DNA of 64,000 bases from Weissella confusa (GTDB lineage: Bacteria; Bacillota; Bacilli; Lactobacillales; Lactobacillaceae). Made by a program: the position numbers and the translations under genes. The stretch is from assembly GCA_014332815.1 (NCBI GenBank), contig JACSZT010000009.1:54156-118155 (forward strand), in the 5' to 3' direction. Of the stretch, positions 7,027-64,000 are shown one piece after another (positions within the stretch are counted from its first letter, which is position 1; each line of letters begins with the position of its first letter). The notes under the pieces are model-generated. The model searched no databases. It was given only the letters and a program-made list of their open reading frames with translations, and had not been told where the DNA came from.

Positions 7027-12372
<5,346 letters not shown>

Positions 12373-16926: not shown

Positions 16927-17534
16927 AAGAATATCGACCACGAGCCCAACGTGATTGATCACGGGAATCCATGATAACAAGATGCCAATGAACGCAATCG
17001 TTAAGGCTGCAATTTTTGTTTTGAAGTAAGGTTGTTTTCCTGTCATATAAGTTAAGTCTCCTTTTTTCAAAACTTTACCGTATTTATTAGTTGTTGACTG
17101 ACGCTAATTTTTTAAAACATGAATGCAATCAAATCCATCCGCCTGCTTATCGTTAATGTGCACAGACAAATGCTTGCTTTCGTGGCTGATTGAATTGCCA
17201 TAGTAGTTTTGGTTAATACTTACTAAGCCAATGCCTAATAAGCTCAATAATGCCGTAATAATTGGTAATGTCTTATCGCCATGTCGATCTAGCCATAGAG
17301 CGAATAGGGCGAATGCAAAAGCGGTTTTCGCAAAAGTCAGCGTCACAGTTTTTGTTTTATTCCCATTACGCCAAATTGCCACGCGTGTCGTTGGGGATGC
17401 GGACGTGTCATCTTCTTGTTCGTTTGGCTTGCCGAGCATGTCACGAATGTCCTGATAGGTGTCACCACCACGGCCAGTTTTGCTATCACCAACGGTCAGA
17501 TTATCAAAGTCGGCGCGAACCCTGTTATTGATAT

Positions 17535-17618
17535 GCCGCCGTGGCGGAACTGGCAGACGCGCACCGTTCAGGTCGGTGTGAGAGCAATCTCGTGCAGGTT
17601 CGATTCCTGTCGGCGGCA
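17535..17618 (+). tRNA. tRNA-Leu (anticodon CAG), intact within one block
   Basis: GCCGCCGTGGCGGAACTGGCAGACGCGCACCGTTCAGGTCGGTGTGAGAGCAATCTCGTGCAGGTTCGATTCCTGTCGGCGGCA has a 7-bp acceptor stem, D-loop, an anticodon loop TTCAGGT reading CAG, a long variable arm and GGTTCGATTCC T-loop; no encoded CCA. Confidence 0.85.
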
Positions 17619-17623
17619 TAAAG

Positions 17624-17660
17624 AAAAGGATGATCCTCATAATCGAGAATCATCCTTTTT
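17624..17660. terminator. Terminator hairpin downstream of tRNA-Leu
   Basis: AAAGGATGATCCTCATAATCGAGAATCATCCTTTTTT. Confidence 0.5.
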
Positions 17661-17916
17661 TCGTAAATTACTTTAGCCCTTCAGCATGCTTACTGGTTAA
17701 CTTGAAGTCGCCTGATGTTCAAATTGTGATGCTATCAACGTGGAACATGAAGTCTGACTGGGAGCTATGGCATGCCAAGAATGACTTCCCACTCCGTCAA
17801 TATGAGAGTTCAAACAGTTTGTACGGTTTGATGCGTAAGCAATACAGCTTTGCCGCGTTCTCAAAGCAAAATATGTAAATAATCTATTCAATAACAGGAT
17901 AATTTGATATAGTTAT

Positions 17917-36330: not shown

Positions 36331-37518
36331 GTGCCGATGTGCTATTCGTTGATACAGCTGGTCGTTTGCAAAACAACGTGAACTTGATGCAAGAGTTGGC
36401 TAAGATGAAGCGTATTATCACACGTGAGTTGCCAAACGAGCCCCAAGAAGTTTTGTTGGCTTTGGATGCGACAACCGGACAGAACGCTTTGCAACAAGCC
36501 CGCTTGTTCAAGGATTCAACTGACGTGATGATTGGTAAGATGTCTGCCCGTTACAAGGCAGAAGGTAAGAAGGTATTGTTGGCTGCTGCGGACACGTTCC
36601 GTGCGGGTGCAACACAACAATTGCAAGCCTGGGGTGAGCGTAACGATATTCCAGTTGTTGCTGGTGAACCAAATGCTGATCCGGCCTCAGTTGTGTATGA
36701 CGGTGTGAAGACTGCTATTGAGACGAGATTGACGGATGAATTGCGTGATGAAGTGAAGCTACAAAATGCGAAGAGCAAGGCTGAAATTTCACGCGTGATT
36801 GTCGATAAGCTAGTTGAACATTATCGTTCACAAGGTGTGAATGAAGATGCGTCAATGCACTTTGCGCCTGAAGGACCAACGGTTATTTTGTTCGTTGGTG
36901 TGAATGGTGTTGGTAAGACGACGATTGTTGCAGAGTCTGAAGCACCAGTTGCTGAAGTAACTTCTGAAACCAACTTGGACGAGGGATTGACGAAGACGCG
37001 CAAGACTTGGTCAGAACGTTGGAACGCCTTTATGGCTAACTTCCGTTCAGTTGACGAAGATTTCTTCGAAGACTTGGAAGAGACGCTAATCGGGGCCGAC
37101 GTTGGTGCTGCCACAGCATTGCAAGTGTTGTACCCAAACACTTGGGAAAATGGGGAAGCACCAGCTGAGCCGACATCACTAGCGGCTGAAGTGTTGCAAC
37201 CAACTGCCGGTCAAGCGGTTGAGATTGTGTTGCCAACGCACGAGGAAGTTGCGCCAGTTGTGACGGAACCGGTAGCTGAAACGGAAACGGTTGAAACGGT
37301 TGCAGAACCTGAAGAGGCGGTTTACTCACCGTAAGGGTACGATGACGAATGCCGATGTGCTATATGGTGTTACTATGCAAGAACCGGGTGTCTCAACGAT
37401 GGTATCGGTTAACTTGCAAGAGCTAGATAATACGCTAGCAGAAAATTAATGGGGAAATGAACAATGGGATTGTTTGATTTTTTTAAGAAAAAGCCTGAAA
37501 CCCCAACTGTCAAAGTTG
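36133..37518 (+). CDS. ftsY: SRP receptor FtsY, block-permuted
   Basis: ATG about 37464 [26 protein letters not shown]; acidic A-domain ...[20 protein letters not shown]; NG domain [14 protein letters not shown]...; C-terminus ...[60 protein letters not shown] at about 36316. Confidence 0.7.
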
Positions 37519-40500
37519 TAGAAGTTCCAGCAAATGAGCCTGTTATCTGGTGGTGAAAAGGCGCTGACAGCGATTAGTTTGCTGTTTGCGATCCTTGAAG
37601 TACGTCCGGTACCGTTTGCGGTTTTGGATGAAACGGAAGCAGCGCTTGATGAAGCCAATGTTGACCGTTTTGCACGTTATTTGCATGAAGTTAATGATCG
37701 TACCCAATTTATTGTGTAAGATAATCTCCGTCAAACGATGTCAGAGATGGATGAAGAAGTTGAGACGCGCTTCAAGGAAACCTTTGATGCGATTGCAGCC
37801 CACTTCTCAGAAATCTTCGTGAAGATGTTTGGCGGTGGTCAAGCTAAGCTCGAACTCACTGACCCAGAACACTTGTTAACAACAGGGGTTGATATTAAGG
37901 CGCAACCGCCTGGCGCGTATGACACATCATTTGAGTTTGCTAAGGCTGAAATGTCTGACATGCCAATTGATAGCATCCGCACGCAATTGAAGTTGTTGAA
38001 GCAAGGTTTGGCTGAAATCGGTAATGTTAATTTGAACGCTATCGAAGAGTATGCTGAAGTTAAGGAGCGTTATGACTTCTTGACGCAACAACAAACTGAT
38101 TTGATTGATGCATAAGAGGCAACTACTGAATTGTTGTCTGACTTAACAGAAAAGTTGACTGACTTGAATGAACGCATTAACGTGGCGGAGGGGATGCTTG
38201 TCCAAGCGCAAGAAGCTCAAACCGATGCCATGTCGACGTTAAGCAAGTTAAGTGGTCGTCAAGGAGAATTGCGTGCGGCTATTCAAAACGGCGAACGTGC
38301 GTTGGAAGAATCTGAATTGCGTGCTGAATTGGCAACGGCGCAAGCAAATGTGCAAGCTGCCCAAGTCCGTCACGAAGATATTGTTGAACAAATTGAGGCT
38401 GAGCAAGCTCGCTTGAACAACTATCAACAACAAATGACAGATTTGACGTCTGATCAAAGTGACGTGCAACAACGTTTATCAGCTGAACTGGCGACAGCAA
38501 ATGCTGATTAAGAGAAGACGGCATTAAGTTATGAATTTAATGTTTCAAGCTCTGGCACGGCTGATCATGAAACAATGGTTGCCGAGAATGCTTCTGAAGT
38601 CACTAATTTGACGGAGAAGCAAGCTAAGTTGCAAGCACAATTAGCTGAATTGACCGACGAGCGCACGGAATTGTTGGCTCGCATTTCAGATGCTGATACT
38701 GAGTTGTCATTGACGGCGCAAGTTGCGACGTTGCATGATGAAACGGCAATTTTGGAACGCCAAGTACGTGAAATTGATGCTGAATTGCAAAATGTGACGG
38801 CATCATTTAATGAGCAACAAGCTAAGGTGCTAGCAGCGAATGAGCGTGCCCAACAAGCAACGGCCAAGTTGCAGGTTGCGGAAGAACGTTTGACCCAAGT
38901 GCAATCAGTAGTGAAAAACTTGTTGGGTACGACAGTGATTGCTAAGTCAATGGACGAAGCGGTACCAATGGCTCGCGCGTTGCAACAACGTGTTCGCATC
39001 GTGACCCTTGATGGTCAAGTGATGAATGCCGGTGGTTCAATGACCGGTGGTGCAAACCGTAACCAAGGTAACGGTTTGCTTTCACAACAAAACGAAGTGG
39101 AATTGATTGTGACTGATGAACAAGTTGGTAAGCAAGCTATTCGCTATTTGACAGAACACCGTTTGGGACGTGTGACGTTCTTGCCATTGTCAACGATTCG
39201 TTCACGCGAGTTGCAACCGGGTCAGATTCAGACTGCACAAAGTCAACCTGGCTTTATCGGAATTGCGGCTGACTTGGTGAAGACTGATGTTACGTACAAC
39301 CACCAACGATTGTCAACGCGTTTGCAGTCGTTGAGTCGCCTATCAGAAAACTACGATGGTTATTTCCAAGGTGTTCGTAACTTGATGAAGGCTAAGGATA
39401 ACTTCCAAGGCATTCACGGCGTTTTGGCTGAGCTGATTTCAGTTGAGACACCTCATCAAACGGCGATTGAAACAGCCCTTGGTGGTGCGTTGCAAAACCA
39501 ACAACGTAGTACATTGCTAGATGAGCAAATCGCCTCAGCAACGGCCAATGTAACGACTGCGCAGGCTGAAGTTGATGACGCAACGACCATGCTTGCAGAT
39601 GAACAAGCAGAATTTGTCCGTTTGCAAACGGCTGGTAAGGAGCTTGAAGCTAAGAGCCAGGCACAACGTCAAGAGTGGTTCAGCAAGATGGAAGAAGCTG
39701 CGGACGAATTGCGATTGCAGATTACTGAATTGACCGCGTCACACCCACGCCAACAAGAAGCAGCGGTTAGTGAGGAAATTGAACAAGTTCGTGCGAACTT
39801 GGTTGACGCGATGCAAGCGTTGACGACGGCGAAGAACCAACAGTCATATTTGGCTCAAGAACACGAGCGCAATGATGCTGAATCTGCGCGCCTGTCGCAA
39901 GATAAGTTGTTGGCCTTGACGACTGCTGTTGAGCAATTGAGTGGTGAACAAAAGTTGCAGGCCGAGCGTTCGGCCAATCGCTCAAATGCAACGCGTGAAT
40001 TGAAGGCGCAAATTGCGCAAGTTGAATCACGTTTGGCTGACTTGCAGGTGACGGAAGCGACGCGCCAAAAGAAGGTGGCTAGTCAAAAAGCACAGCAATT
40101 TGACAAGCTTGACCAATCACGTTTGGTATTGGAACTAACAGATTGGTACAACGAGCAAACTGAAATTGCCCGTGAGCTGGCTGGCGCTGAGCAAGCTAGT
40201 GATGAACAAGCGAAAGTTGTGAAGCAACAGACGGACTCGTTGACGGCGATGAAGGATGAGCGAACACAAACGGAAACAGCCCGTCAAGAATCTGAAGATC
40301 GACGAACGATTATCGAAGATGTTGCAGGTGTTTATAAATACAAGCAAAACAAAGATAAGGCTGAAAAAGAGCTAACTGGTGTGCAAGAAAATTTGAATCG
40401 TGTTCAAGACATTTTGTATGAATTGGAAGGACGCGTTGAGCCATTGGCTGAGCAATCAGCGAAGGCGCAAGATTATCTTGAAACCAAGGACCATTATTTG

Positions 40501-41082
40501 AATTCAGAATATTCTGAAATTCGAATCACCCGTACACTGTACCGTAATGGTGATTCTCGTTACCAAATTAACGGTACGACAGTACGCTTAAAGGATATCC
40601 ATGAGTTATTCATGGATTCTGGATTGGGACGTGAAAGTTTCTCAATCATTTCGCAGGGCCGTGTGGAAAGCATTTTTAGTGCTAAGCTTATGCCAGGAAT
40701 CACAGGGGTTGTTGGACCGAATGGTTCTGGTAAATCAAACATCATCGAATCGATTCGCTGGGTTATGGGTGAACAATCCGCCAAAGGATTGCGTGGTGAC
40801 AAAATGTCGGACGTCATCTTTGGTGGAACGGCACAACGCGCACCACTTAATCGTGCAGAAGTGTCAATTACGTTCGACAACACCAAACAAATCTTTACGG
40901 TTGAGGTATCGGTCAACGAGCAAGCTTTGGCGACTGGAGAGGGAAAGTCAACGAAGGAAGCTGAAAAGGCAGCCGCTCGTGCAGCTTATCAAACTTTGAC
41001 GAAGAACTAGGGAATCGGTATGAAATTAAAAACATTGGAGATTGGTGGATTTAAATCATTTGCCGATCGTACCAAGATTGAA
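37321..41082 (+). CDS. smc: Chromosome partition protein SMC, block-permuted across about 19 pieces
   Basis: ATG 41020 [21 protein letters not shown] joins across 41082/40687 to [45 protein letters not shown] (Walker A), then ...[30 protein letters not shown]...; hinge [10 protein letters not shown]...[12 protein letters not shown] at about 39250-39500; signature [40 protein letters not shown] at 37534-37716; C-terminus ...[39 protein letters not shown] at about 37447. Confidence 0.75.
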
Positions 41083-41676
41083 CTTATTGGCGCCTTGTAC
41101 CTGGACCAGGGACAAGAGGTCGTCATGAACTTCCTTAGTGAAATTATGTTTACGAAGATTGACGAAGGATTCTATGATCAATTCGTTGATTACAAGTCTA
41201 AGCTGCAAGAACACTTGCAACGTCATGGCAGCGTAAAGATTGCTTACACGAAGCTATCTGAACGCCCAGTTGAGAACAATACGGTGTACTTGTTCAAGCG
41301 TTATCCAGATTGGGATGAAGGTCGATTGACAGAGTTGCGAATTTCTATGGTCCAAACTCGCGCTTTTGCAGCTTTGTCACGTGAGTTGCATCTTGATCAA
41401 TATGTCCAACTGGGACGTGGTGAAGAATTGTCCGGCGCACGAAACCGTGATTCATTGCTCGAAGATTTGTGGGAAGCCCATATCTAGAAAGGACGGCTTA
41501 TGTTTAAACAACTTCAAGCAGAATTAGCACTTGCCCATAATATCCATTTTAATGACGTGTCATTATTGGAGGAGGCATTAACACAAGCAAACTATATTAA
41601 CGAACATCCAAATTACACTGGTCGCGATTACCAACGCCTAGAATTCCTTGGGGATGCGGTTATGCAACAATCAACG
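40885..41676 (+). CDS. rnc: Ribonuclease III, block-permuted
   Basis: ATG 41500 [37 protein letters not shown]...[11 protein letters not shown]; ...[34 protein letters not shown]...LEDLWEA joins across 41478/41083 to [14 protein letters not shown]...; dsRBD C-terminus ...[36 protein letters not shown] at 41010. Confidence 0.7.
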
Positions 41677-42072
41677 AAATTTGGTGCTGAAATTTCTGAC
41701 GAAGACGCTGAAAAGTTGATCACGATCAACGACACTGTTGATTACATCGCAGCACGCGTTTAATATTTGTAAATTAAAGGCAAGGACACTTTGAGTGCTC
41801 CTTGCCTTTTTTCAATCTTGTGACACAACAAAAAACGTCGTTATACCAACGGTTTCTCTGGTATAATTGACTAGCCGTTACACTAAATAACGTTAAATAT
41901 TCGAATAGGAAACGGAATAATGGAACGACAAGAAATCATGAATAAGGTTATCGAATTGGTTGCGGACCACTTTGAATTGGACCCAGCTAAGGTAACCGGT
42001 GAATTGAACTTTTTGACTGATATTGATGCTGATTCAATTGACTTTGTTGAATTGGTTTTGGAGATGGAAGAC
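41677..42072 (+). CDS. acpP: Acyl carrier protein, block-permuted (two pieces), with downstream terminator
   Basis: ATG about 41920 [51 protein letters not shown] joins to ..[27 protein letters not shown] (41763); terminator AAAGGCAAGGACACTTTGAGTGCTCCTTGCCTTTTTT at 41778-41812. Confidence 0.65.
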
Positions 42073-43260
42073 CGCCGTAGTTATCGGTGTTAATGCGCCA
42101 GTTGTTAAGACGCACGGTTCAGCTGGACCAGATGCCGTTGCTAACACGATGAAGCAAATCCACACGATGTTGGAAGCTGATTTGGTGGGTAAGGTCCAAC
42201 AATTCGTTGCTGACCATAAGGAAGATTTGTCTGCTCGTCCAGAGAATGAAGTGGACGGTTCGGCCGAATAACCTGCCGATGTTGTGATCGCTGACGGATT
42301 CTCAGGAAACGCAACGTTGAAGTCAATTGAAGGTACGGCTTTGTCAATGTTGAAGTTGATCAAGGATACCATCATGAACGGTAGTTTGAAGACAAAGATG
42401 GCCGGCGCCATGTTGAAGCCAGCGTTGAAGGGCATCCAATCTCGTTTGGACTACTCACAACACGGTGGTTATGGTGTGTTGGGTTCATTCTACGCCCACG
42501 AAATTTTGGACTATGACCAACCACGTGTTGGTTTGTTGAACAACGGAACTGAAGAAGACAAGGGTGACCAAGTCCACAAGGAAGCGCACCAATTGTTGCG
42601 TTATGGCTCAGACAAGAACTTGTTGAACTTCGTTGGAAACGTTGAAGCACGTGACGTTTTGCAAGGTGGTGACGCTGATGCGGTCTTTTCAGCTGGTAAC
42701 ACTGGTGCTTTGTTGGCAGCCGGTATCTTTATCGTTGGTCGTATCAAGGGAATTGATCGTCCAGCTTTGATGACGGCTTTGCCAGCCTTTGATGGTCCTC
42801 ACGATGCCTTCGTGATGATGGACATGGGTGCTAACGCTGAAAACCGTCCAGCTCACTTGTACCAACTAGCGCGTGACCAAATGCCTGACACAGAGTTCTT
42901 GTTGTTTGGTCAATTGGATAAGGTAAAGCCTTTCGTTAAGAACGAAGAGCGTTTGACGTTGGTCCAAGCTGATGAAGTGATTGCCATGGCCGATGAGCCA
43001 GTTAAGTCAATTCGTCGTAAGAAGCAAAGCTCATTGGTATTGGCTGCGCAAGCGGTTAAGAATCGCGATATCGTAATTTTGATTAAAAAAGATACGCCTT
43101 TTACTTTTACCCACTCCTAAAAGTGTGTTAGATTTGTTCTAGCATTTATTTATTAAGTTATTATTTTTTGTGAATTCGAGAGGGAATTAATGATGTTTAA
43201 GATTGCCATTGATGCAATGGGTGGTGACAACGCCCCTGAAGCAATCGTTGCTGGTGTTGA
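42073..43260 (+). CDS. plsX: Phosphate acyltransferase PlsX, block-permuted
   Basis: ATG about 43190 [23 protein letters not shown] joins across 43260/42865 to [57 protein letters not shown]...; C-terminus ...[51 protein letters not shown]...DGSAE* at about 42270. Confidence 0.7.
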
Positions 43261-45438
43261 CATCTGGAACTTCGTGGTGCTGGTGATATTTTGGGTAACC
43301 GCCAATCTGGTGTGCCTGAATTCCGCGTTGGCGATCCGGTAGCTGACTTGGCGATGATGACCGTTGCCCAAGAAGAAGCCATTGAAATTGTTTCGAAGCC
43401 TGATTGGGATAAAGATCCGGAACTGGCACCATTAGCAGATATGTTGTCAGAAACAATGCTGCCAAACTCAACAGTGATGCTGATTTTGGATGCGGACCGA
43501 TTTGGTTTGTCACAGTTGCACCAATTGCGCGGTCGTGTTGGACGAGGAAGCCGGCAATCATATACGTTCCTGATTAGTGACCCGAAAACGCAATACGGAA
43601 TTGATCGCATGGAAGCGATGGTGGGAACTACCGATGGCTTTATTCTTGCGCAAAAGCAAGAGTCAGAAACGTTGGATGTGCAAAATGCTGAGGCTGTTTA
43701 TGCTGAATTGTCTGAGTACTTTGCACCGACGTATAAGGTTGGTTTGCTACATGGTCGTTTATCAAATCAAGAAAAAGAAGATGTGATGGCCGCCTTCAAG
43801 GCAAATGAGTTCCAAGTGTTGGTTTCAACGACGGTTATCGAAGTCGGGGTCGATCCGGCCACGCCAATTCCGCGTACTTTGGCGATTACAGCGTATGGTG
43901 AAATGGATGTGTCCATCATCGATCAATTGCCAGCTGGTCGTAAGCAAATTAAGACGTACTGGCTCCGTAGTAATGAGATGGAAAAGACGATTGCATTTAT
44001 TAAGTCACAGTTGCAAGAAGGCGCACAGGCCTATGTTGTCACACCTTTGATTTCTGCCGCCCGTCGTCAAATTTTGGAAGATTTGGAAAATGGTGATATC
44101 GATATTTTGATTGGAACCCATGCTTTGATTCAACCAGACATCGCGTTTAGAAATCTTGGCTTGGCGGTTATTGATGAGCAACACCGTTTCGGGGTACAAC
44201 AACGTGCAACGCTACGTGAAATTGGGATGAATCCTGATATTCTTGCAATGCATCGTTTGCTTCAGGGAGATGTTGGTTCTGGTAAAACGGTTGTGGCTGC
44301 CTTGGCAATGTACGCGGCGATTACCGCCGGGATGCAAGCCACTTTGATGGCGCCGACCGAAATTTTAGCGCAACAACACGCGAAAACAATTGGCAACTTC
44401 TTTGATCCAGAACAGGTTCGCGTTGAACTACTAACAGGCTCAACTAAATCATTTGAAGAATTCTTCGTCTTCCAAATGCGTCTGCAAGTGATTAAGTCAA
44501 TGGACCGTGATAACCGCGGACGGGCGATTGCGTTTAATAACGATGAACTAAAGGCCTTTATTGCAACGCTGCCGTTTGAATTAACGGATGCACAAAAGCG
44601 AGTGGTGAATGAAATTGTGCGTGATATGAAACGCCCAATTCACATGACATCAAAGGAAATTAAAGCGAAGACAATCAAGGATTTGATTATCCAAGCCTTG
44701 GGTAAGTATGGTGAATTGCTACGCACGGATATTGTGCCAAGCAATTTGCGCACTCGTTATAAGCTCATGAATCATCATGACACGGTGTTTGGCATGCATG
44801 CGCCAACCGATGGTCAGGTGGCGACTGAAGCACGTCGCAGTGCGACACGCACAAGTTTCCGTTTGACGGTCGAACATGACACAATCATGGTGTCATTTTT
44901 CAATCAGCCGTGGATTGGCAAGAATCTTGAAATCGGCCAAGAAGTTGCGGTGCATGGGACGTATGACAAAACGCGTCAAAGTCTATCTGGCATTAAATTA
45001 ATGTCACGCAATGGCGATGATGAAATGGAAGCTGTCTATCCATATGGTGTTGGCCCTAAGCGTGTGCAAGCGCTGAATAAATTGGGCATCTTCACAATCG
45101 ACGACTTACTCGGCTACTATCCAATGCGCTATAACGACTTAGCGATGAAAACGCCTGCCGAAACGCAAGATGGCGAAAAAGTAACGTTCAAAGGCGTTGT
45201 GACATCGCCACCCGTGGTTAATCGCTTCGGGTATAAGAAACGAATCTTGATTCTTTCAATCAAGTCAGTTAAGCGTTAATAATAATTAAGACAGCAACTC
45301 AGATTTGGGTTGCTGTCTTTTTGTGTTTGCGCATGAATCAAACCCGATATTCAGTAAAACCTAATTTTGCGGTATAATGGTACATCAGAAAGGAAGGTGT
45401 TAAGCATGGCTAGTTTATTAGATTTAGTTGATGAGCTT
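43063..45438 (+). CDS. recG: ATP-dependent DNA helicase RecG, block-permuted
   Basis: Promoter GGTATAAT plus RBS GGAAGG plus ATG 45406, [11 protein letters not shown], joins to [33 protein letters not shown] (N-terminal wedge domain); helicase motifs ...[18 protein letters not shown]...[10 protein letters not shown]...; C-terminus ...[19 protein letters not shown] at about 43084. Confidence 0.7.
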
Positions 45439-46824
45439 CGACTTTGGAACTCATTGGACAACTTGCTAAACTTGGAAGTTGTGCCTGATCGCAACCGTGT
45501 TGCCTTCTTCTTGGGTGTTTACAACCTAGGAAACACGGTAACGCAAGCATTGGCCCCAGTTTTGGCAGCCGTTGTGATTTCATTCTTCGGTTACTCAGCT
45601 ATCTTCATCATGTCATTCATCTTTGCCATGATCGGTCAATTGATTAACTTGATTATGTTGGTGTTCGGTATTGCAATGGGATTCTTGGCTGGACCATTTG
45701 CTGACAAGTTCAAGTTGTTGAAGTTGCCAGTTGGTTTCTCAACAATCTTCTTGGCAATTGGTGCGTTGGCAATGTTCATCTTGCGTAACGACATGGGTAT
45801 CATGATTTACGCCTTGATGGCTGGTTTGGGAATGGCGCCAGAAGTTGAAGAAAAGAAGTCATTGAAGGAAGCTTTGGCTATTTTCCCAGCTTGGCGTGTT
45901 GGTCGTGACTACTACCTGGCCTTGATGGGTAAGTTGTTCCAAGGTGTTGGAAACTTTGCCATCACAGGGTACTTGTTGTACATCATGACGGACTTCATGC
46001 ACAAGGGAACAAGTGCAACGCAATCATCAATTTGTGCCACGGCATCATCAGCTTACGGTGGTTTGGGAATGGCGTTGGGTAACAACGGATTCACAATCTT
46101 TGGAGCCATGATGTTGGGATCATTCCGTTTGGGATTTGTCGTATTCGGAATTATCACATTCATCGGAACGTTGATTGCCGCAGCAATCGTTCGTGAGCCA
46201 TCTAACTTGGATGCCGACGATGAAGCGGTTGACAAGACGAAGTCACGCTTTGGGCGTCGTACACCATGGCTTGTTGGTGGTGCCTTTGCCTTCATGCTAG
46301 CCATGATTGGTTCAGCGTTAGCGCCAAATGTTTGGCTATTGTTGGCCGCTTGGATGTTTGGACAAGTTGCATTGAACTTTATCGTTGCACCTATGGTGGC
46401 TTGGTTGGACATGGCGCCTGAGTCAGGGCCATTGCGCCGATTGGTGCCGGGACTAATTATCGGACCAGCGACTTGGCTTGGCCCATACATCGTAGCGTCA
46501 AGTTTGTTCTTGCCAGCTATGTTGCAACAACTTGATAGTGCGCACAAGGTGCAATTGGTTGCGATGTTTTCAACGCTTGCGATGATTGTCGCAGCGATTT
46601 CAAACATGGTTGCCGGTGCCTTGTCAGTGTCTGACGAAGGTGTTAACGGTGAGCCAGGTGAAATTGGTGGCTTTACAGGATTGTTCAACTTTATTGGATC
46701 AGTCGACGCCCACCAACACGACAGCTTTGCTGATTTTGACTACTACTCAGTAAAAAATAACTAATACAAATCAAATTCGGGGATTCATTACCACGGGGAA
46801 ATTATTATGAACATTAAAGAAATT
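45241..46824 (+). CDS. GPH-family glycoside (xyloside-type) cation symporter, block-permuted
   Basis: ATG 46807 MNIKEI joins to [25 protein letters not shown]...[15 protein letters not shown], then [23 protein letters not shown] (GPH signature region), and so on; C-terminus ...[20 protein letters not shown] at about 45279; terminator AAGACAGCAACTCAGATTTGGGTTGCTGTCTTTTTG at about 45290-45320. Confidence 0.45.
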
Positions 46825-48408
46825 ACACTTGGTACGACGACATTGGGCGTGTTGCAAGCTAAGTTGGGCGAGCGTGTGGAATACGTCTTCAACAAGGTTC
46901 CAATGCCAGAGGGCCACGTTGAATTGCGTATGCATTACGACTTCGGCCGTGCAACAATTTCATACCGTCGCAACGCTAACGAAGAGTGGACGGTATTGGT
47001 AGCTGACATCGACGTTGCTTACAGTCACATGCGTATCTACGGTGGCAACTCATTCTTCTCACAAATGCAACCAAGCATTATGGCAACGCGCGCAACGTCA
47101 TTTGTTTATGATGTTGAGACGGCCGTAACGTTCCAACCAGATCACTATTCAGAAACGGCTGGTTTGGGATTGTACTATGATGCCAACAACTGGTTCTACG
47201 CACGTTTGTACAAGTCAGAGCCGGCTGATGGCTGGTTGCAAATGGCTGACGGTTCAAACTTGGCTAAGATGGAAGTGCCAGGCATGACTGGTGTTGAGTT
47301 TGAGAACACGGCATCTGAAGATATTAATGAAACGTTTGATTCAGAAACGATTGATAATCACTTCATGACGCCTTACCGTGATCAAACGGCGGCTTGGGTA
47401 AACACGACAGAAAACCCATTGTTCTCATTGGGTGATCCAGATGCTGGTCAATTCCAAATGTACAACCCTAACTCAGTGATGCAAAAGGCTGGTCACGGGT
47501 CATTGGTTCAAACACAAACCGGTGAATGGTACATCGCGCACTTGATGTCACGTCCTTTGCCAGACACGACGTTGAACCCATTGGGACGTGAGACGTCATT
47601 GCAAAAGATGGCATGGATGACGCAAGGCTTCACAACACGCGGCGCTGCTGAAGCACCACAAATTTACAAGCGTGATGATTACTACTACTTGTTGATTGCT
47701 GCCGGTGGAACGGGTTACGGTCACGGTGTTGAAATCGGTCGTTCAAAGAACGTCTTCGGCCCATATGAAGCCCACCCATCTGGTGAGCCAATCATTACGT
47801 CTTCACCACAACACCATATTCGCGGTCCTTGGTCAGAGCCAATTTACCTAACGTCAATTGGCTTTGACCCAGCTATCTTCCACGATGAAGATGGGAAGCA
47901 CTACGTTTCAATTTTGGAATGGGAGTCACGTACCGGTTATCAAGCACCAGGTCACATTGTGATTGCAGAAGTCGACCTTGAAAATGGTGGTATCATTGGT
48001 GATTGGCACCGTCTGGCAAATTGGACTTTGATTGACCAAGTGTTGAAAAATGGTGAAATTAACTTGCAAGGAACAAACACACCAGCAGGTATTTGGGCAC
48101 CGCACTTGTCTTATGATGAAGCAACTGGCCGTTACTGGTTGGCATACTCACACATGTTGAACATGGCCGGTCGTGAGTTTAACTCAGACTCATACGCGAT
48201 GTGGGCTACTACTTACATTGTACTCTTGTTAAGTAATAACGAATGAAGAGATGACCCAAAGGGGAATATAAAAATGACAATGATTCAAAATCCAGTAATT
48301 CCAGGAATGGCACCAGATCCATCAATCATCCGCGTGGGCGAGACGTTCTACATTGCAACGTCAACTTTCCACTGGACACCCGGTGTTCAAATTTTCGAGT
48401 CAACTGAC
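46627..48408 (+). CDS. xynB: GH43 beta-xylosidase / alpha-L-arabinofuranosidase (XynB-like), block-permuted
   Basis: ATG about 48274 [45 protein letters not shown] joins to ...[11 protein letters not shown]...[23 protein letters not shown], and so on; the C-terminal beta-sandwich ...[22 protein letters not shown]...HMRIYGG joins across 47022/46627 to [41 protein letters not shown] (46764). Confidence 0.65.
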
Positions 48409-49398
48409 CCCAGGTTCATCCATTTTTGAATAGTAAAAGCGGACCCCAACATCAGGGTTGTGTTGGACAGTCTCGTGATAAGTCTTTTTTGTCATAACCC
48501 TATTATCACCGATCAATAACACAAAAACAGGTCAAAAAGGTTACAATTCTCACTTTTGAGAGGTATCTTTTTAACCAACGCTCGGAAATGTATTGTCAAT
48601 GTATCCCTTCTTAATAAAGTCTATAGGAATCTGGAGAACGTAAGCTTCGTTTGGCGTATTACTGACAGCGTGAATTGCCCCAGATGGGACAACGATAAAT
48701 TGCCCGTCAGAGATTTGGGTCATCGCATGGTTCAACGTAAACGTTAGCTCACCGTGAATCACATAAATAATTTCTAAACTGCGGTGCCAGTGAAAAGGCA
48801 CCAATGGTGTCGTGACAGGGGCTGAAAACGTTGTAAATAACGCAAACAACATCTGTAAAATTGTTGCCTGAAAAATAAAGGGGTAACCTGGAATCTTTGT
48901 GTCATAGATATCACCTAAGACTGGAAAGTAGTCGGCAATTTTTTGATAATCAGAATCAGTTAAATCGAGATTGAAGGTTGTGTTTTCCGGATCGGGCCAG
49001 TATAAGTCTTGATAGAAGTGGGTGAGACGAACCTGGTAGATGTATTGCACCGGTGATAAGGCAATTTCTTGCTTAAATAATCGGCTCAAATAATTTGGAT
49101 TATATGAAAACATGTCTGCAAGTTCGCTGATTGGTAGCTGTTCGGCGTAGTGGTCATTAATATAACCGAGGACTTCCTTGAGATGATCTGTTTTTGTTTC
49201 GAGCAAGCTATGCTGGCATTCAATGCTATATAAAGGCCAGTTGAGAACAATCTGACCTTGATTTTAAAGTTCGCTATGTTGCTTGCGAGCCTGGAGCGGT
49301 GTTGTCCCATACGCTGCTTTGAAGTATTGCATGGCCAGACGTTTATTAGTTAGCCCGTTTTTCGTTAATAGTTCCTTGACGGGTTCGTCGGTTTGTAA
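48409..49398 (-). CDS. AraC-family transcriptional regulator (cupin N-domain plus C-terminal HTH), block-permuted
   Basis: The - strand start MDEP.. at about 48425 joins to [49 protein letters not shown] (cupin); HTH ...[40 protein letters not shown] at about 49100-49206; C-terminus ...[25 protein letters not shown] at about 49265. Confidence 0.55.
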
Positions 49399-51378
49399 TC
49401 AGGCCACCGCCGACAATATGAGCTGACTTCTTATCGGCATCAGCCGGCTTACGTGGGTGAGCAAATGCTTCATAGTTACCATTTGAATATCGCATATGTA
49501 TCCTCCATAAATTTCACTTTCCATGCAATGTGTTGTATGCAGTCAGTGTACGGAAACGTCATAACGTTTCCATAACTTATCGGGGAAAGTTGTATGGTGG
49601 AATTGAACGATACATGTCCCACATCGTTTCGAAGTGATTTTCCATTTCACGACCACCACGAATGACAAAGCCTACGTTCGGACGGTTGTCACCATCGAGC
49701 GATCCACCGGGGATGGGGAGCTCTTCGTAGATGTGAATTTGACGGCCAGGTACTTGGGCATCACGGACTAAAAAGACCGCTGTAGCTAAACCAGTTGTTT
49801 GACGTCCTAATTTTGATTCAGGTGTCATGACAAGCTTCACGAGTTCCATCGCCTTGTCATCAAGTTCGTACTTGCCATCAGTTGGGACGCGCTGTCCGCG
49901 CTTGTAAATGAGGCGTGTGTTAGATGAATTTGGATCATCTTGGTCCAGCCAATAAAACTCATCCAAGTAGGAAGCACCTTCGATTTCCAAAGCCAAAACC
50001 ATTGAATCATACTGGTTATACTTGTTGAACTTTAGTGCGGTAAAGTCAGGCAACCCATCAATGTGATGAATGAATCGCATTGCATAACGACGCATCTCAA
50101 CCGCTGAATGCCATTTTTCAAAGGCAAACATGGTTGCCCAGTAACTCCAAAAATTACTCTCGAAAAAATCAGGTGTGAAGAAATCTTCAACTGAGCTCTC
50201 GGTGATTGAACCGTTTGTGACAAAGACCAAATCGTCAGCTGTCAAAGGAATGGCTTGCTCCGTGCCGTCAATTGTCACCACAAGTTCTGTAGCCGTCTTT
50301 TTGTCTGCTTGCACATCGACAACGACATTCGTCACTTGGGCGTTGTAGACGAAGTTCACATCGTGTGATTCCAAGTACTTGATGATTGATCGTTCAATGT
50401 ACGGTTCGATTTCAGGCACCTTGATAGTGGCCGTCGCCGAGATGAACCAACTGCGGTCGGGCAGATTCTCACAAAAGACTTCAGGATGGCCGAATTCATC
50501 AGACTGGGCAGCTAGGTTTTGCCACAAGCGCCAGCTACCACCAAGCTCTTTCGATACGGGTGCTGCTTGATGGTGTGAACCATAAGCTTCCACGATTGTC
50601 TTATCAACATAGTTCCCCTTAGTGTCAGAGTACAAACCGTAAATCCAAACGACCGTCTCGTTTTCTTTTTGCGTTTTAAAATGAGGCTGACGATGAATCG
50701 TGAAACTCATCATCCAGTTTGAATCAGTGATGGTGATAATGCCGCCGGTGTTGACCTTGTGATCATGGAGACTGCGGTTTGTGAGAATGAAAGCTAGATT
50801 TTCTGAATCGTTAGGTACAACGGCTGGGCGATCGCCAGCCTCACGTGGCATGAAGTATGACGTGATGAACGGCATGTATACCGGTACGGTGTTCACGTTT
50901 TCTTGCTTAGCGAGTTCTTTGATTTTTACTTCGGGAACGCCAAGGTGGTAGAGCAACTCTTGCGTGATTTCCTCACCAGTTGGATCCATCTCATCGAGCT
51001 TCTTTTTGTCTGACATGTAGTAGAAGGCTTTCAGTAGTTCGCGGATATCGAATACTGAACCGTACACTTCAGGCACCGCACGGTCGACGTCCATTAATGT
51101 ATAAACGGCTTCCATCGCAGTGCGAATTGAGTATTCGGTCGTAAAGACGGTGTCGCGGCTAGGCGATTCAGCAAAGTTACTGATGGTGGTCAACCATTGT
51201 ACCCAATCTTGATGTCAGTCGAATAATAGAGTAAATACGAAAGCGCCAACACGCTCGGAATTTCCGAATGTGTTGGCGCTTTTTGATTACAGTAGATGTT
51301 GTTCCTTCAGCAACTCTTCAATCCAAGTGCCCTTAATTTTCTTGTTGAGCGCAAGTTTAACGAGCTTCGGCATGTGCA
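49399..51378 (-). CDS. ohyA: Oleate hydratase (myosin cross-reactive antigen family, FAD-dependent), block-permuted
   Basis: The - strand RBS GGAGGATACAT plus ATG about 49495, [32 protein letters not shown], joins to [63 protein letters not shown]...; C-terminus ...[36 protein letters not shown] at about 51282; shared terminator AAAGCGCCAACACGCTCGGAATTTCCGAATGTGTTGGCGCTTTTT (51240-51285) with convergent yloV. Confidence 0.7.
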
Positions 51379-53160
51379 GTTGTTTGACGGTGAAATCGTC
51401 GTTTCAGTACCAAATGCCGACATCCACCAAGCTGCAGTAGAATTGCTAGGCAAGATGATTGACGAAGATTCAGAACTTGTGACGGTGTACTACGGTCAAG
51501 AGTCATCTGAAGACGATGCTAATAAGCTTGAAGAAGCTGGTTTGGCTATCGACGAAGATTTGGAATTCGAGATTCAAGTTAAGGTTGTACGCACGCGTAC
51601 AGTCCAACAAGGTTTGACAGCGCTTGTTTTGGGTTACAACCCTGAAGGAACGCTTGAAGATAACGCTGAAGCAATGACGGCTGCTTTGGGTGATGTGAAG
51701 TCTGGTGCTGTAACGACGTCTGTACGTGACACGACGTTGAACGGCTTGGAGATTCACTCAGGTGACGCAATTGGTACGGCTACTGGTGAAGGAATCAAGG
51801 AATTGTTTGCTTCATCAGGTGCAACGGTTGTTATTGATGCCGAGCAAGCACCATCTACACAAGATTTGGTGAATGCCGTTAAGGAAAGTGGCGCTAAGGA
51901 AGCGTTGATTTTGCCTAACGACAGCAACATCTTTATGGCCGCTGACCAAGCAGTTGAAATTGCTGATGTGCCCGTCGTAAAGGTGCACGTGCACACTGAA
52001 GACCCAGGTGAAGTTATCAACTGGGGAACGCACTTCGGTTCATTGCGTAAGGTTAAGGTTGATAACATGCGTGATCAACAAGCTGAAGCTGCTGCCGCGG
52101 CTGAAGCACAAAAGGAAGCTGAAGCTAAGGCCGAAGCTGAAAAGCCTGCAGTTGATTTGGCAGTTATCACTGATGCGATGGTGATGTCTTTGCACAACGC
52201 CGGTGTTCAAGGTGACTTGAACCCTGAAGATATCCAATTCGGATACTGCACGGAAATCATGGTTGATATTGCAAAGGGAACGACTTACGATCAAGAATTT
52301 GATTACGACAAGTTCTACGAGCACTTGGCAGCCATGGGTGACTCATTGTTGGTTATCAACGATGATGACGATGACGCAGTTGTTGTCATGAAGGAAACTT
52401 TGGATGCGGCTGAAAAGGCTTTGGCATCTACGCCTGACTTGTTGCCTGTTTTGAAGGAAGTCGGTGTTGTTGACTCAGGTGGTCAAGGACTTGTTATCGT
52501 TTTGGAAGCTTTCTACGCTGTTTTGTCTGGTGAAGAAATCACGACTGAAATTGATAACGCTGCTTTTGTTATCTTGTCACAAATCTTCCGTGGATTTGCG
52601 GCTAAGATTGCCGACAAGGAGACGTTGTCAGCCCGTGACTTGGCTGATGCCTTGATGGGTGGTGCTGAGACGGCTTATAAGGCTGTTATGAAGCCAACTG
52701 AAGGAACTATCCTAACAGTTATCCGCGAAGCCGCAGCAGCCGCTAACCGTACGGCAAAGGAGTCAGATGCGCTGAAGAATAACGCGGAAAAGATTAATAA
52801 ATTGAATGTGTTCCCAGTGCCAGATGGTGACACGGGAACGAACATGACGTTGTCAATGGCAAGCGGTGCTGAGTACGAGCGTAACGAAACGGATACGCAC
52901 TTGGGCGCTTTGGCACAAGCAACGTCAAAGGGCTTGCTAATGGGAGCTCGTGGTAACTCAGGCATTTCAAAGAGCGTCCAAGCTCGTGTAAAAAACGATT
53001 TGAATGTCATGCTTGGTATTGTTGCTAGCGAAGTTAATGTAACGGTACAAGGTGTGCGCATGCTAGGAGACTAAAAACCTAGTTATAAGGAGTTGAGAAA
53101 AGTGGAAGTTGTAACGACTATTACCAACGTTGAATTTGGTAAGATGATCAACGCGGCAGC
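51181..53160 (+). CDS. yloV: DAK2-domain fusion protein YloV (Dak phosphatase / DegV-like), block-permuted
   Basis: AAGGAG RBS plus GTG 53093, [22 protein letters not shown], joins across 53160/52765 to ?[66 protein letters not shown], then [18 protein letters not shown]...[21 protein letters not shown]. This is collinear with B. subtilis YloV. C-terminus ...[27 protein letters not shown] at about 51226. Confidence 0.65.
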
Positions 53161-53556
53161 TATTGCGACAATCGTTGGGGGCGCAGCTACTGACAACTAT
53201 GGTGTTGTTGGTATGGCCAGCCAAAACCCACTACGCGATGGTGTTAACCAAATTTTGAATGGCGACAACTTTTCAAAGGGTGTCGTTGTTCGTCAACAAG
53301 ATAATGGCGTTGTTGTCGACGTCCACATCATTGTTGGGTACGGTATGAAAATTTCTGAGTTTAATAGATAAAGCTACCGTTTACGGTGGCTTTTTTCTTT
53401 ATACACGGTATTTGTTCAGGGTATAACGAAATTGGCTATAAGGACCTATTTCTACGCTACGATATGGTAGAATAGATATAGTTTTATACGGAGGTCATAC
53501 AAGATGGCAGTTAAGATTCAAACAACGCAAGGTGCAATTGAAATCGAAAACGAGGT
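52963..53556 (+). CDS. Asp23 / alkaline-shock family protein (YloU-like), block-permuted
   Basis: GGAGG RBS plus ATG about 53504, [19 protein letters not shown], joins to (A)[63 protein letters not shown], then to .[36 protein letters not shown] (about 53074). This is collinear with B. subtilis YloU. Confidence 0.6.
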
Positions 53557-53754
53557 CATATGGCAGTTGATGCAGTCAACGGAAAGCGTACTCGCTTCGG
53601 TAACCAACGTTCACACGCCCTTAACTCAAGCCGTCGTAGCTGGAAGCCAAACTTGCAAAAGGTGACGGTTAAGATTAACGGTTCAGCACCTAAGAAGGTG
53701 TACTTGTCAGCTCGTACTTTGAAGGCTGGTTTGAAGAACGGTTCAATTGAGCGT
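53359..53754 (+). CDS. rpmB: 50S ribosomal protein L28, block-permuted (start piece plus 2-codon tail), followed by terminator
   Basis: ATG 53560 [65 protein letters not shown] joins across 53754/53359 to V* ; terminator AAAGCTACCGTTTACGGTGGCTTTTTTC at 53372-53400. Confidence 0.6.
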
Positions 53755-55338: not shown

Positions 55339-56328
55339 GCAGGTTGGCTTGATTAAGCTGTTTGGCGGTTTTGTGGCCGATACCCCAGGATTCTCAGCGT
55401 TTGAAGTATTCGACATGGAAGCACGTGATTTGACACGTTACTTCCGCGAATTTAACGAATTATCACCAAACTGCCGCTTCCGAGGATGTGTTCACTTGAA
55501 CGAACCCGGTTGCGCAGTGAAGGAAGCGTTGGCCGCACAAGTTATTTTGCCAGAAAAGGCCTTTGACGAGCCAAGTTTGACGGCTGTTAAAGACATGCTG
55601 AGCGATAAGTTGTCAGTTGTTATGGGACAAACTGGTGCGGGTAAAAGTACGTTGCTTAACCACATCGCACCGGAATTGGACCTGGCAACAGGTGAAGTTT
55701 CACAAGCGTTGAGTCGTGGACGTCACACGACCCGAGCTAACGTTGATCAAGCAATTGTTGTGACGGCGGTTAAGATGCCAGATTGGTCAAGCAATTTGCT
55801 TGATCGTCAATTGGTCGCACTTGAAGAAAAGGATATTGAACCGGTTATTTATTTCACGAAGACCGACTTGCTTAATGAGCAAGAAATGGCTGAAATGGTG
55901 ACGGTTGCCGATGGTTATCGCCAAGCTGGATAACAATTAGCGTTGGCAGGCTTTTATGACGTGTTAACTGATGACGGAGAATTATTCCGCACACGCGCAC
56001 GTGGTAATTTCCGCAAGCGTGACATGAAGCCTTTGGTTGGCGACTGGGTAACCTTTAGTGCCGATAGCCAATCTGAAGGATATATTTTGGATATTGATGA
56101 GCGTGATAACAGTTTGGTACGCCCACCGGTACATCATCGTCTTCATCAAGTTCGTCATCTTCATCAAGTAGCAATTCAAGTTCGTCGAGCGCAAACAGCA
56201 CGGCAACTGAATCTTCTACTCATCAATAAGATTAGATAAAGCAGAGTGGGAATGTCGGAGGTTTTAGACCAACACCTGCTGTGACAAAAATAAATAGGAG
56301 AGTAAATGGCAAATTATCATGGACAAAT
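55141..56328 (+). CDS. rsgA: Ribosome small-subunit biogenesis GTPase RsgA, block-permuted
   Basis: AGGAGAG RBS plus ATG about 56306, MANYHGQI, joins across 56328/55933 to [41 protein letters not shown] (OB fold); ...[12 protein letters not shown]...; ...[40 protein letters not shown]; zinc finger [20 protein letters not shown] joins to [32 protein letters not shown] (about 55240). One junction (55932/55537) reads TAA under strict 198-nt periodicity and is unresolved. Confidence 0.6.
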
Positions 56329-58110
56329 AGTGGAACCGTTGATGCTTGGGCACATGAAAACGGCATCAGTGTCACGTATAATGAAATTTACTCAGATAGT
56401 ATGAGTAAGGATCAAATCGTGGCCCAATCGATTACGCCGGGCACGAAGATTACGTCTAACGAGATGTTGTTGATTTATATTTCGAAGGGACAGAACCCTG
56501 ATGCTGTGTCATCAAGTTCGTCATCTGCGGTTGCTGAAAACCTAAAGAACAAAGGCTACACAGTTGAACAGACTGAGGTCGCCGATGATACGATTCCGGC
56601 AGGTTACATCGTATCGCAAAATATTGATGCTGAAGATAAGGTTGTACCATCAAAGACAACCGTTAAATTCAAGGTATCAACTGGCGTAAGCCGATACACA
56701 GTACCTGACTTCAGTGGTAAGACATAGCAAACGCTCAAGGACAATAATTTGAAACTTGGTGACGTGACAACAACAAACTCAGCGACGATTGCCCGTGGTA
56801 AAGTTGTGCGATCAACGCCTGCAGCCGATAAGACAGTAGAGGCAGGCAAGAAGGTTGATTTGGTCGTTTCCAAGGGTGTCGCGAAGGTGCGCTTTGGTGA
56901 TTATGTCAACGAGAAGTACACACAAGACCAGTTGGCTGACAAGGTTGCACCGTTGAACGATGCTACAGTCACGTCAAAAAAGAAGCGTTCGCCATGGCGC
57001 TTTGTCTGGCTTGTGCTTGGCTTTGTTGTGGCGATGGTCGTTGGTTTTGCAATTTATGGGGCAATGCAACCAAGTAAAGTCCACGTGCCAAATCTGCGTG
57101 GCTTAACGCAAGCTGCTGCCCCCAAGAATCCATTGAGCCGTTATACGTCTGCAACTGAGATGGCAGGTGATTTGGCGACAGCACTATCACCTAATCGCGT
57201 AGATGAAGAACGCTGGGTCGATCCAAATGAAGATGCGGCTGATGGTGCAACAAAGGTAGTGCCGTTAGCACAAATTCAAGATATGGCGGCTAAGCGTCCA
57301 AAGACAACTTCTGAAACCCGTGATATTGCAACTGTTCGAAGTGACATTTATTCACTTGGTATTATGTTGTACGAAATGCTAACTGGTCATGTGCCATTTG
57401 ACGGTGAAACGGCGGTGGCAGTCGCTGTTAAGCACACGCAGGATCCGATGCCTTCGATTCGAGACTTTGACCCACGTATGCCACAAGCGCTTGAAAATGT
57501 GATTCTTAAGGCAACGCTCTTATCAGGTGTTGCTGAAGCGCATAAAAACGGCATCGTGCACCGTGACTTGAAGCCACAAAACATCCTGATTGATTTAAAT
57601 GGTCAAGCAAAGATTACTGACTTTGGCATTGCTCGTGCACAGACGTCATTTGGTATGACGCAGACGAATACGGCAATTGGATCGGTTCACTACATGGCAC
57701 CCGAACAAGTGAAGTTGCGTCGTCGCTTTGAAAATGAAATTTCAGCGACAACTGCTTTAGTGCATCCAAATATCATTCAAGTGTATGATTACGGTGAAGA
57801 TGGTGGTTCACAATATCTGGTAACTGAATATGTTGAAGGCATGGACTTGAAGCGATACATTGCTGAACGTCAGCCGATTCCAGTGACACGCGTCATTGAA
57901 ATTATGAGTGACCTGTCACAGTCTTGATCGGCCGACAAGAAAGTGAGGCACGCTAACATGGAAATGAATCAAATGATTGGCGGGCGTTACCGAATTGTCG
58001 AACCATTAGGCGAAGGTGGCATGGCGAATGTTTATCGCGCCCATGACATTATTCTTGATCGTGATGTGTCAATTAAATTGATGCGTCTTGATATGCGTGA
58101 TAACCAGGCA
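56131..58110 (+). CDS. pknB: Eukaryotic-type Ser/Thr protein kinase with PASTA repeats (PknB/StkP), block-permuted
   Basis: ATG 57958, overlapping the prpC stop (TAACATG), [49 protein letters not shown]; catalytic loop [33 protein letters not shown]; TM segment [22 protein letters not shown]; PASTA pieces at 56330-56920; Ser-rich C-terminus ...[31 protein letters not shown] at about 56235. Confidence 0.7.
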
Positions 58111-63852: not shown

Positions 63853-64000
63853 CAATCCAGGCTTGCAAGGTGAAATCGAATTACTATTGCGTCGTCGATA
63901 TGAATTGAACATTACATATATTGATGACCCGACGGTGGCGGATGCTATTATTGCAGACCACTTAATGCTATTGGCACCGTACAAGCGTCTGTTCGTTTGG
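63853..64000 (+). CDS. Partial C-terminal coding piece of the gene upstream of priA in de-permuted order (possibly CoaBC-like), continuing beyond the window
   Basis: Open frame ...DNPGLQGEIELLLRRRYELNITYIDDPTVADAIIADHLMLLAPYKRLFVW with no stop before the window end; family assignment tentative. Confidence 0.2.

Follow-up and report, generated by a model that had tools for sequence, protein, structure and literature searches.

Long open reading frames in a 64-kb Weissella confusa window are chimeric products of a fixed 198-nt block reversal

The stretch of DNA analysed here, 64 kb in all and referred to below as the window, raises a simple question: do the long open reading frames (ORFs) that run across it encode proteins? 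Read at face value they might be novel ones, circular permutants or domain-shuffled SMC-RNase III or RecG fusions, and they are indeed long, stop-free, equipped with plausible start codons and rewarded with significant Pfam matches. The first-pass annotation had instead described them as chimeric read-throughs of real genes, assembled backwards in 66-aa units, and had warned that any annotation, domain prediction or novel-protein claim made from the ORFs as given would be wrong. The mapping of the ORFs onto native proteins and the reversed order of their Pfam domains, both described below, support the description as well as the warning. The window is almost certainly a stretch of W. confusa chromosome that was transformed in silico, rather than a natural sequence.

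Results

Long ORFs consist of descending units of native proteins

We mapped the ORFs as written to the restored proteins by exact 6-mers, gapped blastp being noisy in the SMC coiled coil. The longest chimera of the SMC region (ORF 38575..41010) opens with SMC 770-813 at its aa 1-44, which is the first of twelve descending units and starts partway into its unit. The units that follow, each of 65 or 66 aa, are SMC 683-747, 617-681, 551-615, 485-549, 418-483 and 353-417, and the remaining ones are SMC 287-351, 221-285, 155-219, 88-153 and 23-87. RNase III 193-232 makes up the final 40 aa, after the SMC Walker A head, and the ORF is thus what it had been said to be, reversed SMC pieces followed by the dsRBD tail of RNase III. 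Pfam recovers only fragments in the wrong order (SMC_hinge 177-241, SMC_N 704-791, dsrm 769-808), and the SMC architecture of Walker A head, coiled coil, hinge, coiled coil and C-terminal head is not found in this ORF, which has no C-terminal head at all. The true SMC start, at 41020, lies downstream of the SMC-rich ORF in the ORF list (36-54.5 kb).

The same pattern is found in RecG, where ORF 43291..45279 runs through residues 629-684, 554-618, 488-552, 422-486, 356-420, 290-354, 223-288, 158-222, 91-156 and 26-90. It had been presented as RecG read backwards in 66-aa units, which is correct from 629-684 to 26-90 and incorrect for the last 11 aa, these being the C-terminus of the neighbouring MFS transporter. 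Its Pfam matches are fragmentary and reversed (Helicase_C 141-188, DEAD 316-387, RecG_wedge 583-639), and the RecG order of wedge, DEAD lobe 1, Helicase_C lobe 2 and C-terminal domain 3 is absent from it. Likewise, Pfam places the C-terminal domain of FakA/YloV first in ORF 51296..53074 and Dak2 last, followed by the Asp23 tail.

The apparent Asp23 protein of ORF 53093..53371 had been read as the YloV N-terminus running into the middle of Asp23. We found that its aa 2-23 are FakA/YloV 2-23 and its aa 24-89 are Asp23 19-84; instead of a complete contiguous Asp23 domain (Pfam PF03780, 108 positions) it covers profile positions 7-77 only. The two ends of the real protein, placed beforehand at about 53504 (start) and about 52963-53074 (C-terminus), do flank this ORF: the start occupies 53504-53560, and the C-terminus (aa 85-120) occupies 52964-53071, has its stop at 53074 and has become the tail of ORF 51296..53074 by fusion. 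Both checks that had been proposed for these ORFs gave the anticipated outcome, dot-plots showing an anti-diagonal staircase in steps of 65 or 66 aa and profile searches returning Pfam domains in reversed N-to-C order, and no collinear full-length alignment of the ORFs as written was found.

That these ORFs are real novel proteins is extremely unlikely. Length, start codons and Pfam scores speak for it; however, none of the Pfam matches is more than a fragment of ~90 residues, their order is reversed, and the 66-aa units descend through the native protein in a way that cuts secondary structure as well as the Walker and helicase motifs. The pattern is the same in every tested gene of the window, on either strand. 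The exact sequences are not in the public collections: ORFs 38575..41010, 43291..45279 and 53093..53371 as written are absent among ~15 billion proteins from ENA, NCBI, JGI and Logan assemblies. The coordinates of the chimeric ORFs, and of the genes that they were made from, are collected in Table 1.

Table 1. Chimeric ORFs of the window and footprints of the restored genes.
Feature	Position	Strand	Content or evidence
Region of the first-pass finding, exactly 41 blocks	37321..45438	+	Scrambled ftsY (end), smc, rnc, acpP, plsX, recG, MFS transporter gene end
SMC read-through fragments, ORFs 37738..38115 and 38131..38511	37738..38511	+	ORF list, join codons
Chimeric ORF, 811 aa: SMC units, then RNase III tail, native rnc stop codon	38575..41010	+	6-mer mapping, Pfam
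Chimeric ORF, 155 aa: true SMC start (aa 1-21), RNase III 127-191, RNase III 61-125	41020..41487	+	6-mer mapping
Chimeric ORF, 662 aa: RecG 629-684, nine descending units to 26-90, MFS transporter end and stop	43291..45279	+	6-mer mapping, Pfam
Chimeric ORF, 592 aa: FakA/YloV 486-550 descending to 24-89, then Asp23 85-120 and stop	51296..53074	+	6-mer mapping, Pfam
Pseudo-complete 'Asp23' ORF, 92 aa: FakA/YloV 1-23, then Asp23 19-84 (block 53162-53358)	53093..53371	+	6-mer mapping, Pfam
True Asp23 N-terminus, 19 aa, parted from the rest of the gene by scrambling	53504..53560	+	6-mer mapping
Restored smc footprint, 1185 aa	37391..40948	-	De-scrambled frame, same blocks; Pfam, exact match
Restored rnc footprint, RNase III 232 aa	40958..41656	-	De-scrambled frame; Pfam, exact match
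Restored recG footprint, 691-aa ORF, true start codon may lie further in	43238..45313	-	De-scrambled frame; Pfam
Restored asp23 footprint, 120 aa	53050..53412	-	De-scrambled frame; Pfam, exact match
Restored fakA/yloV, 565 aa	51334-53031		De-scrambled frame

A single rule restores the native chromosome

With the 811-aa ORF as query, a search of genomes, one per species, led to Weissella loci. Against Weissella confusa NBRC 106469, the window as given produced 118 blastn HSPs of ~197-200 nt at ~99% identity, all plus/plus and together spanning window positions 28412-51180. The sum of query start and subject start is constant across these HSPs (50896/50897), which is an anti-diagonal staircase at the nucleotide level. 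The inverse rule that we applied is to reverse-complement each 197-nt block in place. Under this rule the 115 HSPs found by megablast (median 197 nt) became one HSP of 22,611 nt with 98.95% identity and one gap. This direct comparison with a native reference covers window positions 28482-51092; for the rest of the window the evidence consists of the restored proteins and a weak phase scan.

The structure behind the staircase is strictly periodic. There are 323 joins, from window position 97 to 63853, each at p mod 198 = 97, and between them lie 197-nt blocks that keep their native orientation in reversed order. The repeat unit is therefore 197 nt plus one complemented spacer base, with a period of 198 nt or 66 codons. 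Tracing shared 15-mers along the native locus showed 77 joins in a row, each displacing the diagonal by exactly 396 nt (2 x 198), a regularity that is not due to chance. Assigning the join base to the start of the following block or to the end of the preceding one gave 15 matches out of 77 either way, which is chance level, and it was this failure that led to the complement rule: at 77 of 77 joins the base is the complement of the native base separating the two blocks, and at none of the 77 is it identical. Where blocks meet, no sequence has been added, dropped or duplicated, as a single gap remains in 22.6 kb after restoration, and the 198-nt period is indifferent to gene boundaries, intergenic regions and strand.

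These data refine two statements of the first-pass annotation. The 66-codon unit holds as a period, and consists more precisely of 197 nt plus one complemented base. The scrambling placed at 37321-45438 is real and is not limited to that region, since it covers the whole 64-kb window; of the two limits, 37321 is itself a join and 45438 falls one base short of one. Beyond the aligned part, the extent rests on Pfam and exact protein matches rather than on the ORF-length phase scan, a weak metric in which phase 97 ranked first or second in seven of eight 8-kb sub-regions and eighth in 40001-48000.

Fixed-size block reversal anchored at the start or end of the window, with sizes of 30-1200 scored by ORF length, had given no signal. 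This is accounted for by two properties: phase 97 is not tied to the ends of the window, and ORF length has little power to discriminate where blocks keep the frame. Such an unanchored phase also implies that a longer sequence had already been transformed when the window was cut from it. At either end a partial block is left (1-96 and 63854-64000) that is not restorable, the remainder of each lying outside the window.

Several observations concern the underlying DNA. The block at 39499-39697, which encodes about aa 418-483 of the SMC coiled coil, shares no more than 90% identity with NBRC 106469, compared with ~99% for the neighbouring blocks, and has the look of a natural patch of allelic variation or recombination between strains; the restored SMC, this block included, is nevertheless identical to the SMC of other W. 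confusa strains. The genes for an MFS transporter, a GH43 beta-xylosidase-like protein and an AraC regulator (window 45440-49193) are present in W. confusa and have no counterpart in W. fermenti (locus 4296-4321), and this stretch, which separates recG from the oleate hydratase gene, looks like a natural accessory island. W. fermenti for its part carries ~1.4 kb of extra DNA between rnc and the acpP/plsX region (locus 7909-9331) that is absent from W. confusa and from the window, and one window block (41678-41874) aligns to the W. fermenti locus in two separated pieces. In the window as given, every 2-kb bin has a positive GC skew, which fits blocks that keep their native coding-strand (leading-strand) orientation on the plus strand despite their reversed order.

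Restored genes encode known W. confusa proteins

The restored sequence contains 55 non-overlapping ORFs at 87% coding density with a strong strand bias, 87% of coding residues being on the minus strand. The gene order is the canonical one of Lactobacillales, rpmB-side/asp23/fakA/recG/plsX/acpP/rnc/smc/ftsY/ylxM/ffh. The restored genes include those for a CcpA-like LacI regulator, PepF, two GH1 6-phospho-beta-glucosidases, MecA, TelA, GlpK and the rplS/trmD/rimM-side genes; Ffh, FtsY, SMC (1185 aa), RNase III (232 aa), PlsX (353 aa), RecG (691 aa), the MFS transporter, GH43 and AraC; oleate hydratase (590 aa), FakA/YloV (565 aa), Asp23 (120 aa), Rpe and RsgA; and a PknB-like kinase, a PP2C phosphatase, RsmB, Fmt and PriA (806 aa).

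Nineteen restored proteins, from position 984 to 63642, show near-complete Pfam coverage in a single stretch with the canonical domain order. Restored SMC matches SMC_N over 3-1168 with the hinge at 519-635, and restored RecG has the wedge at 26-172, DEAD at 268-428, Helicase_C at 472-581 and RecG_dom3_C at 609-681. Restored Asp23 covers profile positions 2-108 of the 108 of PF03780, a restored GH1 covers 4-452 of 453, and restored PriA has its domains in the order 3'BD, DEAD, Zn ribbon, Helicase_C and PriA_C. Furthermore, all five proteins compared (SMC, RNase III, Asp23, PriA and the 6-phospho-beta-glucosidase BglA) are residue-for-residue identical to public W. confusa proteins, with exact matches on 22 contigs for SMC and on up to at least 1000 contigs for the others. 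This identity validates the treatment of every join codon inside the five proteins.

COI51096.1, an SMC that clusters with the W. confusa SMC at 90%, bears the source name 'Streptococcus pneumoniae', and the listed accessions of the exact Asp23, RNase III and BglA sequences likewise include some of the COI series; the source is probably a mislabelled or contaminated public assembly. The PknB-like Ser/Thr kinase (restored ORF 56231-58081, de-scrambled frame) has three PASTA domains and a C-terminal run of ~30 serines, which is a low-complexity tail of the native protein and is unconnected with the scrambling. ARAGORN finds an intact tRNA-Leu (anticodon CAG) at 17534-17619 on the plus strand, which survives because it lies wholly inside one block (17522-17718), while Rfam at gathering thresholds returned no matches over the window as given.

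Read-through ORFs follow from a frame-preserving period

The way in which such ORFs arise can be set out from the rule itself. On one strand, every 197-nt segment has been reverse-complemented in place and one base per 198 nt left untouched; seen from the other strand, this is equivalent to reversing the order of 198-nt blocks while keeping the orientation of each. Because the period of 198 and the jump of 396 are both multiples of 3, the pieces of a gene stay in one frame and six-frame ORF finders cross the joins.

A read-through ends only at a native stop, within an intergenic stretch, or at a join whose complemented base makes TAA or TAG. Using only the window codons and stops of the join-codon table, since the bases after a join belong to a different block, we found join-made stops at 37519 (TAG), 37717, 38113 and 38509 (TAA at each) and 42269-42271 (TAA). 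Such stops are the reason why SMC is split into several ORFs: the fragments 37738..38115 and 38131..38511 are bounded by those at 37717, 38113 and 38509, each formed by a complemented T followed by AA. Where no stop arises, the join base alters one residue per 66-aa unit. What results are long ORFs without stops that string 66-aa pieces together from high to low positions and fuse neighbouring genes, and none of them is a protein.

The joins carry no recombination signature

We examined whether the block ends resemble sites of DNA rearrangement. Inverted repeats at block ends are at chance level, with 3.11 of 12 inside the blocks against 3.02 in a shifted control and 2.91 against 3.00 just outside, and so are pointer-like direct repeats at the joins (1.99 of 8 against 2.12 in the control). 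With neither kind of repeat above chance, the joins are without a recombination signature.

These results bear on a real biological rearrangement, in the manner of the scrambled genes of ciliates or of invertase flipping at shufflons, which permutes or inverts gene pieces and to that extent resembles the window superficially. Ciliate segments vary in size, carry short pointer repeats and are unscrambled by an RNA-guided process, and shufflon-type inversion needs inverted-repeat recombination sites flanking each segment. The window has no pointers, no variable segment sizes and no eliminated intervening sequences, nor are its segments flanked by inverted-repeat sites. Every block over the 323 joins is 197 nt plus 1, regardless of genes or strand, and the joins are free of spacer DNA, duplication and loss. 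Moreover, every tested gene is disrupted, including ffh, ftsY, smc, plsX, priA and fmt, which are essential in bacteria, and a cell with this chromosome would not be viable. The chimeric ORFs occur in no public assembly, while the restored proteins are exact W. confusa proteins. Taken together, we regard a biological rearrangement as exceedingly improbable.

An artefact of sequencing or assembly in the public record, such as a mis-assembly or scaffolding error, would agree with the finding that the underlying DNA is real W. confusa sequence at ~99% identity. However, assembly errors occur at repeats and irregularly, and the chimeric proteins are absent from ENA, NCBI, JGI and the Logan assembly collection. 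A perfect 198-nt periodicity that persists over 64 kb, with a single base complemented in each period, is not known to us from any recombination, sequencing or assembly process. Such an artefact is accordingly very unlikely. The chance that the sequence exists as physical DNA, in a living Weissella with a 64-kb periodic 198-nt inversion or in a built construct, is vanishingly small; if it did exist, it would imply a new ruler-like recombination process or a deliberate recoding experiment.

The features found are those of a block-permuted decoy made in silico: a fixed period that is blind to gene boundaries, and one deterministic rule that restores the native sequence. No observation contradicts this explanation. 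We infer a deliberate transformation, intended as a decoy or negative control, or else a software bug upstream.

Discussion

Our results define this window as a matter of quality control, not of biology. There is no real biological feature here, be it a new protein, a new element or a new mechanism, and the underlying DNA is an ordinary, well-known Lactobacillales neighbourhood of W. confusa. Every ORF, domain match or 'novel fusion protein' called from the window as given is spurious and should be discarded, even though the chimeric ORFs pass naive filters by their length, their start codons and Pfam E-values that reach 1e-58. To survive intact in the window as given, a feature must be shorter than one block, as the tRNA-Leu gene is, and other observations on the window have to be weighed against its 198-nt block structure. 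A block permutation that preserves the reading frame makes a demanding decoy, and this one was recognised from the sequence alone, to the exact block boundaries.

Compared with the native asp23-fakA(yloV)-recG-plsX-acpP-rnc-smc-ftsY-ylxM-ffh region of W. confusa (NBRC 106469, NZ_BJZE01000002.1), the de-scrambled window is the same at 98.95% over 22.6 kb, whereas the window as given differs in its reversed block order, its 198-nt period, its one complemented base per period and the destruction of its genes. The micronuclear genes of ciliates such as Oxytricha share with it segments in permuted or inverted order; they differ in having variable sizes, eliminated spacers and pointers, whereas the window has a fixed segment size, neither pointers nor spacers, and a bacterial source. 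Shufflons and phase-variable invertible segments similarly share segments inverted in place relative to the native strand, but involve few segments at one locus, in contrast to the 322 adjacent inverted segments found here without flanking inverted repeats above chance. Block-shuffled or segment-inverted decoys, which serve as negative controls in sequence analysis, have in common with the window a fixed block size, a fully reversible deterministic rule, the preservation of local composition and codon usage, and a disregard for gene boundaries. The window differs from them in a block length that is a multiple of 3, which keeps the frame and thereby yields long, misleading ORFs with significant domain matches.
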